A stretch of 24,423 bases of DNA, from positions 1 through 24,423 of the forward strand of contig JAGOOF010000001.1 in assembly GCA_017992655.1 (NCBI GenBank), in the 5' to 3' direction. Of this stretch, positions 1 to 11,994 are shown piece after piece. Below the pieces are notes generated by a model. The model ran no database searches. It saw only the letters and a list, made by a program, of their open reading frames with translations, and had not been told where the DNA came from. Source of the stretch: Patescibacteria group bacterium. GTDB taxonomy: Bacteria; Patescibacteriota; UBA1384. Made by a program: the position numbers and the translations under genes. How positions within the stretch are numbered: the stretch's first letter is position 1; the number at the start of each line of letters is the position of its first letter.

Positions 1-115
1 CTAACCTTCCGATAACGCCACCTAAACTAGGTTCACGCCATTTTTTTAGGTCGCTTTCCTTAACCTCACCGTTATGCTCAATATATATAAGAACTTCAAT
101 GGACGGAGTAATCAT
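1..115 (-). CDS. 5' part of a protein running off the window edge, possibly a winged-helix DNA-binding protein
   Basis: Hand translation from ATG at 115: MITPSIEVLIYIEHNGEVKESDLKKWREPSLGGVIGRL..., open to the edge. AAAAAGGTG SD-like element 5 nt upstream and its own promoter. The wHTH call is a pattern impression from only 38 codons. Confidence 0.55.
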   Translation of the reverse strand, partial: MITPSIEVLIYIEHNGEVKESDLKKWREPSLGGVIGRL

Positions 116-145
116 ATAACCACCTTTTTTATATTATGTAGTTAT

Positions 146-174
146 ATACTATTAAGTTAATGTACGTTCGTCAA
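146..174 (-). promoter_or_regulatory. sigma70-type promoter for the gene starting at 115
   Basis: Minus strand TTGACG (174-169), 17 bp spacer, TAGTAT (151-146). Confidence 0.6.
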
Positions 175-194
175 GTACAAAAAAATGCTGTATT

Positions 195-1133
195 TTATTC
201 CCAAACGAAATTATCGAAACCCCAGTCCAAAAGCTTTGCTGTTTCTTGCGCACTAGCTTCGTTCGTATTGCTGATTGTGTTTAATACTACAGAGATGAGG
301 GTGTGTCCATTTCTATTTGCAGCAGCTACCAAAGAATGTCCTGCCTCAAACGTAAAGCCAGTTTTACCTGCAATTGCGCCCTCATATTTCAGTTTATCAG
401 TGATCAGCCGATTAGAGTTTTCGAGCTCGTATTCAACTCCGTCTTCATTTTTTATCACAGTCTTATCGGTGCTCATAATTTCTTTTAACTTATCGATCTT
501 AAGAACGTAGGAAAATAAAATGGCCTGATCGAATGGTGTGGAATAGGCCTCTGCGCTTAATCCATGCGGGTCCATGTAGTGTGTATCATTAAGGCCGATA
601 GAGTGAGCCTTCTCGTTCATTAACTCCACAAATGCCTCCTCGCTCCCTGTGGTAATACGTGCAAGCGCCTTTGCCGTATCGTTTCCTGATTTTATGAGCA
701 GTGCCCTTAGTAGCTCCCCTATTTTCATACGATCTCCACTTTTTATACCAATTTTAGAGCCGATGACATTGGAGTCGGATGCTTCGATCGTTACGACCTC
801 ATCAAGATTTTTTTGTTCGTAAACAACGAGTGCTGTCATTACTTTTGTGATGCTTGCAATTTGCACCTTCTCACGAGCACCCAGCCCAAACATAAGATGT
901 TTAGAGTCGGCATCGATAAGGATGATATTTTTCGCTTTGGTTTTCGGTTCTTGGGAGATGTCTTTGATCCGAGGAATGGGAGCGACACCAAGATTGTTTG
1001 CATCTATTGCTAGAGCGTTGATATTACTAGCGTTAAGTTTTGGTTTATAAATTTGTTGCCCGATGCCAAAACCTGTCATTGCCAATATCGCAAGAAAAAC
1101 AATTAATATATACTTAGGCGGTTTATTATTCAC
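195..1133 (-). CDS. D-alanyl-D-alanine carboxypeptidase (peptidase S11, PBP5/DacA-like), N-terminally membrane anchored
   Basis: Catalytic motifs SxxK (ASITK), SxN (KSGND) and KTG (GKTGFT), plus the YMDPHGL segment. Hydrophobic N-terminal helix. Ends after the penicillin-binding domain. Confidence 0.92.
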   Translation of the reverse strand: MNNKPPKYILIVFLAILAMTGFGIGQQIYKPKLNASNINALAIDANNLGVAPIPRIKDISQEPKTKAKNIILIDADSKHLMFGLGAREKVQIASITKVMTALVVYEQKNLDEVVTIEASDSNVIGSKIGIKSGDRMKIGELLRALLIKSGNDTAKALARITTGSEEAFVELMNEKAHSIGLNDTHYMDPHGLSAEAYSTPFDQAILFSYVLKIDKLKEIMSTDKTVIKNEDGVEYELENSNRLITDKLKYEGAIAGKTGFTFEAGHSLVAAANRNGHTLISVVLNTISNTNEASAQETAKLLDWGFDNFVWE

Positions 1134-2988
1134 GGATAGAAACTTGATATTTTTTTGTTAAGTGGTCTCGTAGTTTATCGTGTCTCGTATCTGCCTCTTC
1201 TGCGGTCAGTGTATTGTCTGGCTTTTGGTAAGTGATCCTTAAAGTCATGCTTTTTCTTCCTTCGAACTTGGGGCTTTCAAATTCATCAAGGGGCTCAACA
1301 ATTAAGATAGAATTATCTAATGAGCTGACGTCATCCAATATTGTCCCAATTGCTATTTTGCTTTCAATCAAAAAAGATATATCGCGTACAACAGGTGGAT
1401 ATTTTGATATAGCCCTGTATCTATTGTTAGTGGTAGGCATCCTGTTTGATGCTAATGAAAGAGAAATTTTTTCGATGGGTATTTCCGCGAAGAAAAAAGA
1501 TCTTTTAATTTTATAAAGCTGAGATGTTTTTGTGTCGGGGGTTATTCTTACAACACTAGACGGTGGGAATATTTCCCCTAAGCGATGGTTTTTGCTAGTT
1601 GAGGCGGCAGCAAGATTTATAACTTCTTCGCCATTTGTAAAGACGCTACCGACTTCAAAAATTGTAAATTGATCATACCAGGGATTTTTAGACACCGCTT
1701 CGAACATTTTCGGTGCAAGCAATGGACGCATGTAGATATATTCGGCTGATAAAGGCTTTTCTATCTCAACAAGATCTTTTTCATTTAAAGCGAAAGCGCG
1801 AACTTCTTTTTTGCTAATAAACGATGTGCTTTTAACCTCCGTTAATCCCATTTCAGCTAGAGTGGTTATCAGTCTGTTAGTGTTCCCTTCCTCGCCTTGT
1901 GTATGTATTGCAAAATTGCTTGATAGCGCATTGGGCGTAATATGATGATAGCCGTAAATGCGTGCCACTTCTTCTGCGATATCGACGGGGCTTTTAACGT
2001 CGTGTACGCGCCACGAGGGCACAATGACTTCTTTTCCTGAAAGCTTGAAGCCAAGACGGGCTAAGATATTGCGCGACATTGTTTCGCTAATATTTGCGCC
2101 AGTAATGGCAGGAATCAAGCTATAGTCAAACGAAATAATATTTTCTTGAATTGGTTTTTGAATAAGAATTTTTTTTCTTTGAATACGGTAGCCCCAATTC
2201 TCTAGGGTCTGGGCTGCTTTTTCCAGAGCATAAATTGGTGCTTGCGGGTCAACCCCTCGCTCGTAGCGATAAGAAGCGGGTGTTTGAACGCCTGCAGTTT
2301 TTGCGCTTTTACGAATAACCGCTGGCGTAAAAATGGCGGCTTGTATCAAGATTTTCGATGTTGTTTGAGTAACAGAAGAATTGACACAGCCACTTATTCC
2401 TACTAAATCTACTATGGTATTTTTACTGCGGGCAACCAAATTCTCTTCTTTTATCTCTATTTCAGTATCGCCAAGTAAAATTGCTTTTTCGCCATGTTGT
2501 CCAAAACCAATCTCTAGCCTATTTACTTTTTCCAAATCAAAGGCGTGAAGTGGCAGGCCGTATTCATGCATTAAGTAGTTAGTGAGATCGACAATATTAT
2601 TTTTAGGGTTAATATTAATTTGTTTTAATCTTTCTGCAATAAGCGAGGGTGATTTTTTTGGTGTTGGCCCTTCGGCAACAAAATAAGCATAAACAGGCAC
2701 ATTCGTTCTTGCTGTTTCGCTATTGAAAAAGACGATATCATCTTCCTCTTCTATAAAACCTGAAGGTTTGCTGTAAGGAGTGGTAGTTTGATTAAGGAAA
2801 GCATTTATTTCGCGTGCGAGACCATAAACACTTACTGTGTCGCCACGGTTTGGGGTAATTTCTAGGTCTAAATAATCATCAGTGATCTTGTCGGGGGTAA
2901 AGCCAATCGAATGAAAAATATCAGCAATTTCGGAGCTTTTCTTCTCTGTTTTGCAAAAATCTTTAAGCCATTCAATTGGTAAAATCAT
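1126..2988 (-). CDS. pheT: phenylalanine--tRNA ligase beta subunit (short form, no B2 OB-fold)
   Basis: LEITPNRGD, VDLTNY...PLHAFD, ASYRYERGVDP, PSWR...DIAEEVARIYGY, and C-terminal B8 ISKYPPVVRDISF. Directly follows pheS. Confidence 0.96.
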   Translation of the reverse strand: MILPIEWLKDFCKTEKKSSEIADIFHSIGFTPDKITDDYLDLEITPNRGDTVSVYGLAREINAFLNQTTTPYSKPSGFIEEEDDIVFFNSETARTNVPVYAYFVAEGPTPKKSPSLIAERLKQININPKNNIVDLTNYLMHEYGLPLHAFDLEKVNRLEIGFGQHGEKAILLGDTEIEIKEENLVARSKNTIVDLVGISGCVNSSVTQTTSKILIQAAIFTPAVIRKSAKTAGVQTPASYRYERGVDPQAPIYALEKAAQTLENWGYRIQRKKILIQKPIQENIISFDYSLIPAITGANISETMSRNILARLGFKLSGKEVIVPSWRVHDVKSPVDIAEEVARIYGYHHITPNALSSNFAIHTQGEEGNTNRLITTLAEMGLTEVKSTSFISKKEVRAFALNEKDLVEIEKPLSAEYIYMRPLLAPKMFEAVSKNPWYDQFTIFEVGSVFTNGEEVINLAAASTSKNHRLGEIFPPSSVVRITPDTKTSQLYKIKRSFFFAEIPIEKISLSLASNRMPTTNNRYRAISKYPPVVRDISFLIESKIAIGTILDDVSSLDNSILIVEPLDEFESPKFEGRKSMTLRITYQKPDNTLTAEEADTRHDKLRDHLTKKYQVSIRE

Positions 2989-2995
2989 AATAAAA

Positions 2996-3685
2996 TTAAA
3001 ATTGTTTTAAAAACCTTAAGTCACCGCTTAGGCTCCAACGGATGTCGTCTACCCCTCGTTCCAGCATCATAAGCCTATCAAGCCCCATACCAAAAGCAAA
3101 GCCTTGCCACTTTTCGCTCTCTACTCCCATATTTGCTAATACCTCAGGGTGGATCATACCGCTTCCCAGTACCTCAAGCCATTGCCCATGCCACTTTATC
3201 ATGACGTCCATACCTGGCTCAACAAATGGGTAGTTATGGGGGAAGAACTTAGTTTCAATGTCTTTGCCCAGCAATTCTTTTAACAAATAATTAAGCGTCC
3301 ATATAAGGTTGGCCATAGTAATATTTTTTTCTATTACAAACCCTTCTAGCTGGTGCAAGACCGCCTCATGGGTAGCGTCAGTGGCTTCGTTGCGGAAAAC
3401 TCTGCCTGGAATTAAAATACGGACAGGCGGTTTCTTTTGGGCCATAGCTGGAATCTGCATTGCAGACGTATGTGTTCGCAGTACTCTTTTGTCTTTTGTC
3501 CAGAATGTGTCTTGGGTGTCACGAGCTGGGTGGTCTTTAGGAATCCTTAGAACGTCAAAGTTGAGCTTTTCAGTTGTTATTTCAGGCCCTGTTACCACGT
3601 GAAAGCCAATTTTTTCCATTGCGTAAATCGCGCGACTTACGAGCTGGCTAGTAGGATGAATGTGACCCATTGGTAGTTTAGACAT
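2996..3685 (-). CDS. pheS: phenylalanine--tRNA ligase alpha subunit (catalytic domain only)
   Basis: GHIHP, NFDVLRIPKDHPARDTQDTF, LRTHTS, PGRVFRNE, WLEVLGSGMIHP, GFAFGMGLDRL, DLRFLKQF. Start placed at ATG 3685 (overlaps the upstream stop) rather than 3718. Confidence 0.96.
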   Translation of the reverse strand: MSKLPMGHIHPTSQLVSRAIYAMEKIGFHVVTGPEITTEKLNFDVLRIPKDHPARDTQDTFWTKDKRVLRTHTSAMQIPAMAQKKPPVRILIPGRVFRNEATDATHEAVLHQLEGFVIEKNITMANLIWTLNYLLKELLGKDIETKFFPHNYPFVEPGMDVMIKWHGQWLEVLGSGMIHPEVLANMGVESEKWQGFAFGMGLDRLMMLERGVDDIRWSLSGDLRFLKQF

Positions 3686-4058
3686 AATTAGGCTTTTTGG
3701 AGTTATAGTAAAACTCAATTAAAATTAACGCAATAACATAAACGCTCGCACTCAATAGGTTTAATACGTCGATAGTTCTTAACAGTACAAGGCCAATAAT
3801 GCCGATACTGATAATCAGCCCTTGTCTTATTGAAGATAAAAGGATATTCAGTTGCTTGTTGCGATCTTTATTTTTGCGCACGTAAAAAAAGAACATTGCG
3901 AGGATACCCCATATAAAAAACAAAGCGAAAACGTAGAACATCGCTCTACTAAACTGATCGGTACTAAAGGGGTCGATTGTCTGTAAGATCGTAAACCACC
4001 CAGCGAACGAGAGCAACGTGGCGGAAAATACTGCAAATAGAATCTTATAGTGTTTCAT
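3678..4058 (-). CDS. hypothetical integral membrane protein, about 4 TM helices
   Basis: 126 aa with four hydrophobic segments. Start overlaps the rbfA stop (ATGA) and stop overlaps the pheS start. Confidence 0.85.
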   Translation of the reverse strand: MKHYKILFAVFSATLLSFAGWFTILQTIDPFSTDQFSRAMFYVFALFFIWGILAMFFFYVRKNKDRNKQLNILLSSIRQGLIISIGIIGLVLLRTIDVLNLLSASVYVIALILIEFYYNSKKPNYV

Positions 4059-5658: not shown

Positions 5659-6417
5659 TTACTTTTTTGATTTAGTTTTGCTTGTTTTACTTTTTTTCTT
5701 GGCTGGCTTCTCGTTGGGCATAGTATCAGCCAAATCGGTGTTTATTAACGTGAAATGGTCGATTAATATTTGGCTTGCGTTCTTAAGTGCCTCATAGGGA
5801 GTAATACTGCCATTAGTTGTTATGTCGATGGTGAGACGGTCAAAATTGGTAATACTGCCAACACGGGTATTTTCCACCTCAAAATGAACTTTTCTAATTG
5901 GTGTGAACGCACTGTCGAGCATTATTGTCCCAAGTGGGGTTTTTTCTTCAGTTTTCTTTTCACTCGCTACAAAGCCCCTCCCCTTTTCAATTACAATGTC
6001 GGCTTTTAATTTGCCACCTTTGCCTAGCGTTGCGATGTGGTAATCGGGGTCAATAATCATAACATCAGATACTGTTTTTATGTCTTTAGCCTTAACCTCC
6101 TTTGGGCCACTAACGTCAAGAGAAATAGTAACGGGATCATCTCCCTCAAGCCTGACTGGCAGGCCCTTAATGTTGAGAATAAATTCGACAATATCCTCAC
6201 GCATATTTTCAACTGTGGTAAACTCGTGGTTCACGCCGTCTATTTTTACTGAGCTTACGGCGCTTCCTTCTAACGATGCAAGCATTACTCGCCGTAGCGC
6301 GTTGCCAACTGTAACTCCATACCCTGGGCTTAATGGCTCAATAACAAATGTCGCGGCATTTTGCTCGCTACTTTTCGTGCTTAATTTTACTAATTCAGTT
6401 TCAGGTAATAAATACAT
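5659..6417 (-). CDS. rpoA: RNA polymerase alpha subunit, N-terminal domain only
   Basis: FVIEPLSPGYGVTVGNALRRVMLASLEG, HEFTTV, EDIVEFILNIK, GRGF, DSAFTPIRKV, RVGSITNFDRL, TNGSITP. AGGAG SD upstream. Confidence 0.96.
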   Translation of the reverse strand: MYLLPETELVKLSTKSSEQNAATFVIEPLSPGYGVTVGNALRRVMLASLEGSAVSSVKIDGVNHEFTTVENMREDIVEFILNIKGLPVRLEGDDPVTISLDVSGPKEVKAKDIKTVSDVMIIDPDYHIATLGKGGKLKADIVIEKGRGFVASEKKTEEKTPLGTIMLDSAFTPIRKVHFEVENTRVGSITNFDRLTIDITTNGSITPYEALKNASQILIDHFTLINTDLADTMPNEKPAKKKSKTSKTKSKK

Positions 6418-8293: not shown

Positions 8294-9043
8294 TTACAGT
8301 TTAGTTAAAATTTCACACCCTGATTTGGTAATAAGTACTGTGTGTTCAAAATGTGCTGAAAGCGATTTGTCTTGAGTACGAATTGTCCAGCCATCATTAC
8401 GGTCAATTACAATTTCTGGCGATCCTAACGTGAGCATGGGCTCGATGGCAATAGTCATACCTGCCTCTAAGGGTGCTCCTTTACCATATGTACCATAATT
8501 AGGAATACTCGGCTCCTCCTGCAGTTTTTTCCCAATGCCGTGGCCAGTAAGGTCTCTTACCACCGCTAAACTGTGGGCTTGTGCCAAGTGAGAAACTGTC
8601 GCACCAATGTCGCCCACATGAGAACCGTGCTTTAGCTCTTTAATTGCTAAATATAAGGATTTTTTGGTAAGCTCTATTAATTTTTCTGCGTCTTTGTTAA
8701 TTTTCCCAACAGGAACTGTGAGTGCGGAGTCAGCATAATAACCGTTGTGTTTTACTCCCATGTCTAAACCGACGATATCCCCTTGTATCAATTTTTTCTT
8801 GTTGGGTATACCGTGCACAACAACTTCATTAGTTGAAGCGCAGAGCGTTGCGGGGTAACCGTTAAAACCGAGAAAAGCGGGTTTAACCCTATGTTTTTTA
8901 CAGAGATCAGTTGCTAAGGCGTCTAACTCATAGGTTGTTACTCCTGGTTTAACCGCAGAACTTAGCTCTTTCAAGATTGTAGCCAGTATTTTACCGGCGC
9001 TACGCATTCGCTCAATTTCAATCGCATTTTTCACTTTTATCAT
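8294..9043 (-). CDS. map: methionine aminopeptidase, type I
   Basis: Metal ligands in LDMG, YADSA, GHGIG, AIEPM and SAHFEHT, plus NEVVVHGIP. Confidence 0.97.
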   Translation of the reverse strand: MIKVKNAIEIERMRSAGKILATILKELSSAVKPGVTTYELDALATDLCKKHRVKPAFLGFNGYPATLCASTNEVVVHGIPNKKKLIQGDIVGLDMGVKHNGYYADSALTVPVGKINKDAEKLIELTKKSLYLAIKELKHGSHVGDIGATVSHLAQAHSLAVVRDLTGHGIGKKLQEEPSIPNYGTYGKGAPLEAGMTIAIEPMLTLGSPEIVIDRNDGWTIRTQDKSLSAHFEHTVLITKSGCEILTKL

Positions 9044-9957
9044 TTTATAATTCCAATTACCGCGGAGGCATTAACGTTTGTGTTGATGAGTTGATCTAAG
9101 AGTAAAGAATATATAATAGGCTGTCTATTGCTTAAAAAGACGAGGTAATTGCCATCGTTTGATATGCGGAGATTTTTAATATCAGCAGGAGTCTGCGAGA
9201 GGTTGTAGTGCTCATTTTCTTTAATCATTTTTATTCCTTTTTCTGTATTGTCACCCGCATTTTTTGACACTGTATAGGCAATGATATTTCCTGTTGCAAC
9301 AAGCTCTCGAACGTAACCACTTTCTTTTTTAATAATTTTGCTAGCGGTGCCATTTTTATTGGCTTCCCATATTTCACTTCCATTTTCTTTCTCTAAACAG
9401 TAAATGAGGTTTTCGTTATCTTTCCAGCTCACGGACGTGATTTTACTGCTTGTGTTGGCAATACTGCCGATGTGCTGACCACTAGCTGATGTCAGCGCTA
9501 GTTTGTAGCCGAAATCGCGTTCCGCATTAGAAAATGTTATAAGTGCTGCTTCCTCACCGCTAGGGCTTAGTAGAGGTACTACGCCGTCGCTAATATCAAA
9601 AGTAGTTTCTTGTGTTTCGCCTATTCTATTAACAAGGTAAACTTCTTGCTTGTCGAGAGAGAAAAACGTGCCATTTTCACTACTAGGCGACGTAGTGCCT
9701 CCCACGTCATTCACTATTTTTTTATTTTCGCTAGTGGCAAGGTTCAAATGGAAGAGTGAATTACTGTTGATGTAAACCAAAGTACCTTCTATTTCATTTT
9801 GCTTTAAAGCGCTAATTTCTGAAACAGCGAGATCAATTTCTTTAACATTGTCTTCACGTGGTGTTGCCCCTCCATTGTGGATATAAAGAAAAGCGACTAA
9901 AACAACGAGTGAGACAGCAAGCAAGTAGCTAATAAGGCGCTTATTTTTTTTACTCAT
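9040..9957 (-). CDS. hypothetical protein with an N-terminal membrane anchor and a beta-rich, possibly TolB/PD40-like propeller domain
   Basis: 305 aa. Basic N-terminus, then LLAVSLVVLVAFLYI. LSPSGEEAALI, VSWKDNENLIY and ISNDGNYLVFLS resemble propeller blade turns. Tightly coupled to secY and map. Confidence 0.8.
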   Translation of the reverse strand: MSKKNKRLISYLLAVSLVVLVAFLYIHNGGATPREDNVKEIDLAVSEISALKQNEIEGTLVYINSNSLFHLNLATSENKKIVNDVGGTTSPSSENGTFFSLDKQEVYLVNRIGETQETTFDISDGVVPLLSPSGEEAALITFSNAERDFGYKLALTSASGQHIGSIANTSSKITSVSWKDNENLIYCLEKENGSEIWEANKNGTASKIIKKESGYVRELVATGNIIAYTVSKNAGDNTEKGIKMIKENEHYNLSQTPADIKNLRISNDGNYLVFLSNRQPIIYSLLLDQLINTNVNASAVIGIIK

Positions 9958-9958
9958 G

Positions 9959-11245
9959 CTAAATAAACTTATCGTATGTTTGTGTTGCCATTTGAGACTT
10001 AATTTGGTTCATTACTTCAATGGCAACTGCAACGATAATAAGGATTCCAGTTCCACCTAATGCAATTGTCCTAAATTCGGGCGTGCTTGCTTGTAATAAA
10101 TAAGGGATAATTGCCACAAGCGCTAAAAAGAGCGCACCAGTGGACGTGATTCTATAAAGAATAGTGTGAATGTAGCTTGCAGTCTCTTTGCCTGGCCTTA
10201 CGCCGGGAACGAAACTTCCTTGTTTCTGTAAATTCTCTGCGATCTGTTGTGGCTTAACGATAATTGATACATAGAAAAAAGTAAACGTCACTATTAAGAC
10301 AAAAAAGAGAGAGGCGTAAACATAGTTATTATTAATGAGTGAATTGACGGTATTTGCCGCTGAACGTAACCAATCCGAGCGTGCATCTGCAAATAGTTGC
10401 GCCAAAAATCCTGGAATCACTAAAATGCTGGTGGCGAAAATAATAGGAATTACGCCGGCAGCATTAATCTTGATAGGTAGATAAGATTCAACGTTTGTTG
10501 CGGAGCGCGAAGAGGCAACGCGGCGCGCATATGTAACCGGAATTCTTCTTTCTGCAAGCGTTACCCAAATTATTACAACGATCATCGCTATTATGATTAG
10601 GCCGTATAAGCTTGCCATGAAGATCTGCGTGGGGTTGCCTGCAACTACTTGTGTTAGGTTTTGTATACTTTGTGGTAAGCCGGCAATGATGCCAATCGCG
10701 ATAATCATCGATACACCATTTCCAATCCCTTTTTCACTAATTATTTCACCTAGCCACATTAAAAGTACGCTACTGGCCGCAGCTACGCTCAAAACAATAA
10801 ACATGTCCCAGTTGTTTTCTATTTTAACAACGTTTTGACTTGCCAGGAGTTTGATGAGGCCATATCCTTCTATGAAAGCAAGAGGAACAGAGGCAAGCCG
10901 GGTGTATTGGTTGATTTTACGTCTCCCATACTCCCCTTCTTTTTGGAGAGCTTCAAGCTGGGGGATAAGCATGGTGAGTAATTGAAAAGCAATAGATGCG
11001 GTAATATAGGGTCCCACCCCAAGCAGAGCAAGCGAAAAACGGCCCACTGCCCCACCTGAAAACATATCTAAAAGACCAAACATTTGGTTTTGCTCGAAGA
11101 ACATGCGTAATCCAGCTATGTCAACACCGGGAAGAGGAATTTGGGCGATGGCACGAAAAACTACAATCAATCCTAATGTTACAAGAATGCGCTTACGCAA
11201 ATCCTTATTTAAAAAAATAAGATTGAGTGATTTAAGTGGTTGCAT
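9959..11245 (-). CDS. secY: preprotein translocase subunit SecY
   Basis: [77 protein letters not shown]. Confidence 0.98.
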
Positions 11246-11477
11246 TATCTTTCTTTTTCAGCGCTTTTTTGTCGTGCCTTCTACGGGAAGGACCTTTTAG
11301 CTTTGGTAGACGGGCAAAAAGTGGTGATTGCCCACCCTCAAAACGGGCAGCAACACCACGCCCGGAGCGCGATTTTTGCCCCTTTGTACCACGGCCAGCG
11401 GTCTTACCAAGGCCTGCTGCGATGCCACGTCCTGCGCGCTTACGCTCTTTAACTATTTTTGGCAGTTTGTTTAACAT
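11232..11477 (-). CDS. rplO: 50S ribosomal protein uL15, truncated (81 aa)
   Basis: [26 protein letters not shown] and [14 protein letters not shown] are the uL15 N-terminal signature. Canonical position before secY. Confidence 0.92.
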
Positions 11478-11994
11478 CTTTTTTCTTATCCTCTTTTACT
11501 GTTTCCTTTAAGCTATATAAGGTATGTAGTTTGTTTAGGGACTGCAAAGCACCAAGTGTTGCCTGAGCGATATTGTGCTTATTGGCAGAACCGAGTGATT
11601 TTGCGACAATGTTGCGAATGCCCACAGCTTCAATAATCGCCCTTACTGTGCCCCCTGCAATAACAGATGTACCTTTAGGAGCAGGCTTCAAGTGTATTCT
11701 CGCACTTCCGCTAACATGCGTAACCTCATAAGGAATTGTTTCATTAATGATTGTCACTGCACACATTTTTCTTCTTGCTTTCGCGTTTGCCTTGCTAATT
11801 GCAAGGCTTACATCTCCCGCCTTACCTACTCCGATGCCAACTTTCCCTTTACCGTCGCCAATAACTACCAGCGCTCTAAAGCGGATACGACGTCCACCCT
11901 TTACCGTGCGGGAAACACGATCGATCTGAATTACCTTTTCGATCATGTCGCTTTTAGGCCGAGTAACTTTTTCTCTTCTCCCTGTATTTCTCAT
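11449..11994 (-). CDS. rpsE: 30S ribosomal protein uS5
   Basis: [41 protein letters not shown]. Confidence 0.97.

Follow-up and report, generated by a model that had tools for sequence, protein, structure and literature searches.

What sort of uL15 does a Patescibacteria group bacterium make when the gene in its rplO position has only 81 codons: a working ribosomal protein that has lost its globular domain, one whose missing domain is supplied from elsewhere or replaced by something else, or only the product of a faulty assembly? The gene lies in a window of 24,423 nucleotides, a term by which we mean the whole stretch of DNA that was analysed, and the window belongs to a draft genome (G000) of 518,605 bases in 64 contigs that is 95% complete.

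The rplO locus and its product

The window holds a minus-strand ribosomal block that runs from fusA and rpsG-like genes through the S10 and spc genes, where the order continues with rplF, rplR, rpsE, rplO, secY, a gene for a 305-aa membrane protein, map and infA and, further on, rpoA and rplQ. In this block rplO occupies its canonical spc-operon slot, downstream of rpsE and directly upstream of secY (order rplR-rpsE-rplO-secY; Table 1). The preliminary description of this DNA had reported an 81-aa uL15 with overlaps of 29 bp to rpsE and 14 bp to secY, and both open reading frame coordinates and profile matches confirm it: the start of rplO reaches 29 nt into the 3' end of rpsE, and its own 3' end extends 14 nt past the start of secY, with the last codons of the tail inside that overlap. 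Because the N-terminus of SecY is complete (matching TIGR00967 from position 1 to 412), no space is left for further uL15 sequence before secY, and the earlier claim to that effect is borne out. Between rpsE and rplO there is no slot for rpmD, the gene for uL30; the two genes overlap directly because rpmD is absent, which sets this rplO apart from the canonical bacterial gene. The lack of uL30 that had been described also holds for the G000 genome as a whole, in which PF00327 has no match anywhere, and uL30 is absent in all CPR (PMC9297842). The AAGAGGA motif listed in Table 1 is a putative Shine-Dalgarno sequence of rplO.

NCBIfam model TIGR01071 (rplO_bact) matches residues 9-66 at model positions 12-68 of 144 (E=1e-21), and the score of 77.3 bits (76.7 in the genome search) falls just below the equivalog cut-off of 77.95 because half of the model remains unmatched. 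Pfam models, PF00828 included, have no match in the 81-aa protein. With phmmer against PDB chains, residues 10-67 align to residues 14-71 of E. coli uL15, and 57 PDB uL15 sequences are matched at E<=1e-5. The signature extension of bacterial uL15 is present (GRG..G.GKT.GRG.KGQK.R ... FEGGQ ... RLPK), with codons 1-62 leading from the Gly-rich GRG... stretch by way of RFEGGQ to RLPKLKG. Thirty relatives from its class (130-182 aa) were aligned with the protein: past the LPKxxG motif (here LPKLKG) they run on into a domain of ~75 aa, whereas its own chain has only 19 more residues and lacks that domain. The comparison with canonical E. coli RplO (144 aa; TIGR01071/PF00828) gives the same picture: the first 62 residues align one to one with E. 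coli 14-71 and the gene has the same spc-operon position upstream of secY, but the ~75-residue C-terminal alpha/beta domain is missing and a 19-residue basic tail stands instead. The 81-aa protein is thus supported as a uL15 reduced to its N-terminal extension plus this basic tail.

Other products of the window show features of their own. The 305-aa gene sits between secY and map, the usual place of adk; its product carries a membrane anchor at the N-terminus and gives a weak match to a WD40/beta-propeller model. In the same slot, the distant g69 lineage has a gene with a similar hydrophobic N-terminus, cut off by the edge of the locus to an open-ended fragment of ~71 aa. RpoA (252 aa) comprises only the N-terminal dimerisation and insert domains and is followed directly by rplQ; the domain search detected no alpha-CTD, which fits a lineage-wide trend of domain loss. 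PheRS beta (620 aa) has B3_4, B5, core and FDX-ACB domains, with no OB-fold tRNA-binding domain seen in the domain search, and PheRS alpha (240 aa) consists of the catalytic core only.

Table 1. Coordinates of features in the window and in the loci compared with it
Feature	Position	Strand	Evidence or remark
rplO (uL15)	window 11232..11477	-	ORF, 81 aa, ATG start, ends ...DNATT
rplO codons 1-62, conserved N-terminal rRNA-threading extension	window 11292..11477	-	alignment with 30 relatives
rplO codons 63-81 and stop, Lys/Arg-rich tail	window 11232..11291	-	sequence
Shine-Dalgarno-like AAGAGGA, inside rpsE, 11 nt before the rplO ATG	window 11489..11495	-	read by eye
rpsE (uS5, 181 aa)	window 11449..11994	-	PF00333, PF03719, TIGR01021
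secY (428 aa, complete)	window 9959..11245	-	PF00344, TIGR00967 positions 1-412/414
305-aa gene	window 9040..9957	-	PF24807, E=1.6e-5
RpoA	window 5659..6417	-	PF01193, PF01000
PheRS alpha	window 2996..3718	-	
PheRS beta	window 1126..2988	-	
Slot gene between secY and map, L032	2..745		
Slot gene between secY and map, L033	1..213		
Slot gene between secY and map, L034	2974..3186		
Only 23S rRNA copy of G000, L039 (contig C30)	36..314 and 153..2428	-	group I intron (RF00028, 72 bits) near E. coli 1938
23S rRNA loci compared: L039, L038, L045-L048			
Spacer between rplO and secY, L063	1004..1113		
Region between rplO and secY, L145 (G192)	1236..2165		
Region of the broken rplO-secY linkage, L146 (G237)	1..1622		

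Deletion and recurrence of the short form

The genome collection includes one further species of the genus, G001, whose uL15 has 84 aa and whose rplO shows identical overlaps of 29 nt and 14 nt. Full-length uL15 of the sister genus G003 (153 aa) has the same frame relation to secY and the same 14-nt overlap, ending in ...NAAN before the stop where the protein of the window ends in ...NATT, and its pre-terminal basic stretch (KK..K.NA) resembles the tail of G001. Since G003 and the short forms stand in the same frame to secY, the net loss is a multiple of three, amounting to 72 codons in G000 and 69 in G001. An in-frame internal deletion removed the globular domain and kept the coupled rplO/secY junction: some 70 codons for the surface-exposed C-terminal alpha/beta domain (PF00828) were cut out, and what was left is the N-terminal extension, a basic tail of a few residues more and, at the secY start, the 14-nt overlap for translational coupling. 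On a metagenome contig (L063), a 110-nt AT-rich non-coding spacer separates a 72-aa rplO from secY and may be what is left of a decayed C-domain coding sequence.

A survey of rplO lengths, proposed together with the preliminary description, showed that short uL15 recurs in other lineages. Across 162 species of the class, uL15 was matched in 156, and short forms (contig-end cuts aside) occurred in genus g1, to which G000 and G001 belong, and in genus g69 of another family (G086, G087), whose 73-aa uL15 ends RLPKKKSRPNKKR and is directly followed by secY. The genera closest to g1 have full-length proteins of 138-153 aa. Metagenome contigs contributed, besides the 72-aa form of L063, a 79-aa form (P0013, from three samples) and one of 76 aa. 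Outside the class, short and basic-tailed proteins were found in G192 (a single contig of 766 kb; 90 aa) and in G237 (88 aa), and PF00828 has no match anywhere in either genome. Basic tails comparable to that of the window are carried by the other short-uL15 lineages as well; each loss cut the protein just after the LPK motif and left a Lys/Arg-rich tail. In G192, ~900 nt with opposite-strand ORFs separate rplO from secY, and in G237 the gene after rplO is not secY but a large ORF with a membrane anchor and a P-loop, which by eye resembles FtsK.

Absence of PF00828 was rejected as a survey tool, as this model misses about half of the genuine full-length uL15 proteins of the class (e.g., G032, G035, G037, G026, G023, G033); elsewhere in the phylum it detects most of them. 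Phylum-wide, 35 of 401 genomes have no PF00828 match, a count that is unreliable within the class, and the five non-class genomes checked among those without a match divide into two with truly short uL15 and three with full-length proteins, such that the frequency in the phylum is only bracketed. The uL15 C-domain is already fast-evolving in the class where loss recurred.

In a tree of SecY and uS5, G000 and G001 are nested in their own family beside the full-length G003, G002 and G004, and g69 lies far away as sister to a full-length genome. Placing all short-uL15 lineages in one clade was rejected (AU p=5.9e-5); a common origin of genus g1 and L063 was not (AU p=0.12). The domain was therefore lost at least twice in the class, and two other families of the phylum add further losses.

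Contact residues in the retained part and the fate of the missing domain

Structures of full-length homologues show what the remaining part of uL15 can be expected to touch. In the archaeal structure, L15 residues 1-57 form an extension that runs into the RNA core; its conserved glycines are in contact with the counterparts of the E. coli bases G1190, A196 and G2415, and behind the peptidyl transferase centre it meets the loop of uL4 (PMC2386862). The interfaces of bacterial uL15 (T. thermophilus numbering) are with uL4 (Pro8), bL21 (Pro23) and bL35, the last covering 838 Å2 and involving R50, F51, E52, R55 and P63, and all catalogued protein interfaces of uL15 lie within residues up to 63 (PMC4881015). 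The aligned 81-aa protein has kept RFEGG and LPK, motifs that match the bL35-contact residues R50/F51/E52/P63, and the published contact residues for uL4, bL21 and bL35 would all fall in the part that short uL15 retains. Every short-uL15 genome examined has genes for both bL35 and bL21; a co-loss of these partner proteins was accordingly rejected.

We consider it very probable that the gene encodes a functional, domain-deleted uL15. The extension would thread into the 23S rRNA core, carrying all described contacts to uL4, bL21 and bL35, and most likely the short protein has kept the role of an internal rRNA "staple" and network node and has lost only the solvent-side surface knob. It is presumably assembled into 50S subunits, and the extension alone would suffice for the assembly and stabilising role of uL15. 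Escherichia coli reportedly tolerates complete deletion of rplO (work of Shoji and colleagues, from 2011), and mutants of this species lacking L15 were reportedly described by Lotti, Dabbs and co-workers in 1983. Given that E. coli survives without rplO, loss of the C-domain alone is plausible. On the evidence of these strains, translation as such depends neither on uL15 nor, in consequence, on its globular domain. The E. coli strains, however, are laboratory mutants with growth or assembly defects, whereas here the extension has been kept under purifying selection in natural lineages.

The preliminary description had also asked for a check of the 23S rRNA for loss of contacting helices. No deletion tracks the truncation. 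A MAFFT alignment, itself rough, compared the short-uL15 genomes G000 (partial), G086 and G087 (complete) with the full-length G003, G031 and G038 and with E. coli, and every deletion of >=8 nt in the comparable region was common to both groups, among them those in domain III (~1412-1433, 1505-1519, 1531-1542, 1568-1595) and one in the H98 region. Co-deletion of 23S helices with the uL15 domain was therefore rejected, the deletions being shared with full-length lineages. The 23S gene of G000, on contig C30, covers E. coli positions 12-1938, beyond which lie a group I intron and then the end of the contig; its 5' two-thirds are no shorter than in E. coli, and the 3' third (domains V-VI) is absent from the assembly and was compared only via G087. 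An apparent "miniature 23S rRNA" (2276 nt spanning model positions 1-2925) proved to be an alignment artefact. The compared members of the class also show variable 23S insertions near 146-164, 228, 351, 551, 1173 and 2166 in this rough alignment. The lack of a deletion confined to the short-uL15 lineages fits what has been published as a general rule for CPR: where proteins are lost, the rRNA sites that bind them are not lost with them (PMC9297842).

One alternative to plain loss is that the vacated site has been filled, be it by rRNA inserted in particular lineages or by some other protein that has become extended. G000 has an insertion of ~62 nt near E. coli 1740, where its relatives have a deletion, and inserts of 100-140 nt occur near 551 and 1173 in G087 and G003 (all in the rough alignment), but no insertion is common to the short-uL15 lineages yet absent from the full-length ones, and we regard such a replacement as improbable. 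Of the stripped 50S surface that had been proposed from this locus, the absence of the uL15 domain and of uL30 stands, whereas bL35 and bL21 are retained and the 23S rRNA shows no specific deletion. According to one network analysis, uL30 contacts uL15 in one T. thermophilus state (PMC7535068).

The domain could instead be encoded elsewhere and enter the ribosome as a separate subunit. PF00828, the L15/L18e/L27A domain, has zero matches in G000 at E<=10 in a search that matches 14 of 14 control genomes, and TIGR01071 finds rplO as its only locus in all of G000, with no full-length rplO. We also built a class-specific C-domain HMM from the C-terminal parts of 30 class relatives and ran it, with filters off, over the 11,741 stop-to-stop segments in all six frames of G000, where the best match (E=0.036) lies inside a Pol I 5'-exonuclease ORF; as a control, the same HMM gave 31 matches in the loci set and detected every full-length relative. 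Profile A1, which detects the full-length sister genus G003 at 1.4e-23, returned only chance-level matches in G000 and G001 (E 0.02-0.05, in Pol I-like ORFs) and none in G086 and G087. No separate C-domain gene is detectable in the assembled genome or in three other short-uL15 genomes, although a very divergent stand-alone C-domain could escape detection, this domain being fast-evolving in the class and the genome 95% complete. Limited sensitivity is what speaks for a split gene, given that Pfam misses about half of the genuine C-domains in the class; however, the class-specific HMM and profile A1 do detect full-length relatives and yield chance-level matches or none in the short-uL15 genomes, and the domain would have had to relocate separately in four or more lineages. 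We judge a split gene very improbable. The preliminary description had left it that the ribosome lacks the domain or that a split gene supplies it; the gene does lack the domain, and the genome-wide search proposed at the time brought to light neither a full-length rplO nor a separate gene for the C-domain.

Several lines of evidence bear on whether the short gene is real. A protein (P0001) of 81 aa and 98% identity occurs on ~20 contigs from at least eight sequencing runs. In each of the eight places shown, which represent eight runs, the 81-aa gene lies between rpsE and secY with unchanged overlaps, and the 305-aa gene is present as well. Eight independently assembled contigs are 99.1-99.3% identical to the window over 540 nt across both junctions, with zero gaps; these contigs, along with the architecture of the second species, rule out the collapsed or deleted segment that had been named as a possible flaw. 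Between G000 and G001, rplO has an overall dN/dS of 0.145, with dN of 0.120 and dS of 1.141 in core codons 11-62, the dS of neighbouring genes being at or near saturation in this comparison, and a second short-uL15 pair has a dN/dS of 0.04. The gene is conserved and under purifying selection, and is neither a collapsed assembly nor a fresh pseudogene. An assembly or binning artefact, or a decaying pseudogene beside a functional full-length rplO in the unassembled 5% of the genome, might draw on the draft of 64 contigs at 95% completeness and on the incomplete 23S gene, which shows that some regions are unassembled, but is largely refuted and of negligible probability: eight independent assemblies share the architecture without indels, the structure recurs in a second species, purifying selection acts on the gene, which occupies the canonical rplO slot, G000 and G001 each have exactly one TIGR01071 match, and the single-contig G192, from another lineage, has only a 90-aa uL15 and no PF00828 match.

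Reduced uL15 in CPR ribosomes

A uL15 without its carboxy-terminal region is already known from some CPR (Tsurumaki et al., 2022; RNA 28:1041, PMC9297842), where it takes up one sentence of the main text. The proteins described there agree with the 81-aa uL15 in the protein concerned, in the end that is missing and in the kind of organism, and the feature is shared among close genomes, as those authors ask, through the congener G001. The genome of the window combines CPR-type traits: a size of 0.52 Mb, no uL30 and no uL15 C-domain. Short uL15 is thus a member of an already described phenomenon, and what is gained is detail and not a new kind. New here are the loss of the whole PF00828 domain, a constant boundary right after LPKxxG and independent recurrences, together with an in-frame deletion that preserves the secY overlap, selection data, and the placement of the residues of all known protein contacts in the part retained. 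Proteins of this sort are easily overlooked in annotation: short uL15 falls just under the cut-off (77.3 against 77.95 bits), and marker counts based on Pfam will miss it.

Loss of the domain is presumably part of a general streamlining of genome and proteome in these bacteria of ~0.5 Mb. Tsurumaki et al. (2022) conclude that CPR ribosomes have simplified surfaces (PMC9297842), a view that the present findings support. It is a further and rather unlikely step, which we put forward tentatively, that selection itself removed the globular domain at least four times at the same boundary while strongly constraining the extension, such that the extension would be the functional core of uL15 and the surface domain an accessory. 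If this were true, the surface domain of uL15 would be, for example, an assembly aid needed for fast growth, and, uL30 being absent throughout the CPR as well, these ribosomes may expose one continuous patch of bare rRNA, or the patch may be held by a lineage-specific factor. Short uL15 offers a clean natural example of a universal ribosomal protein cut down to its rRNA-buried extension, one that is real, selected and has arisen repeatedly. It also speaks to a long-standing question, namely which part of a ribosomal protein is essential to its function, the extension or the globular domain.
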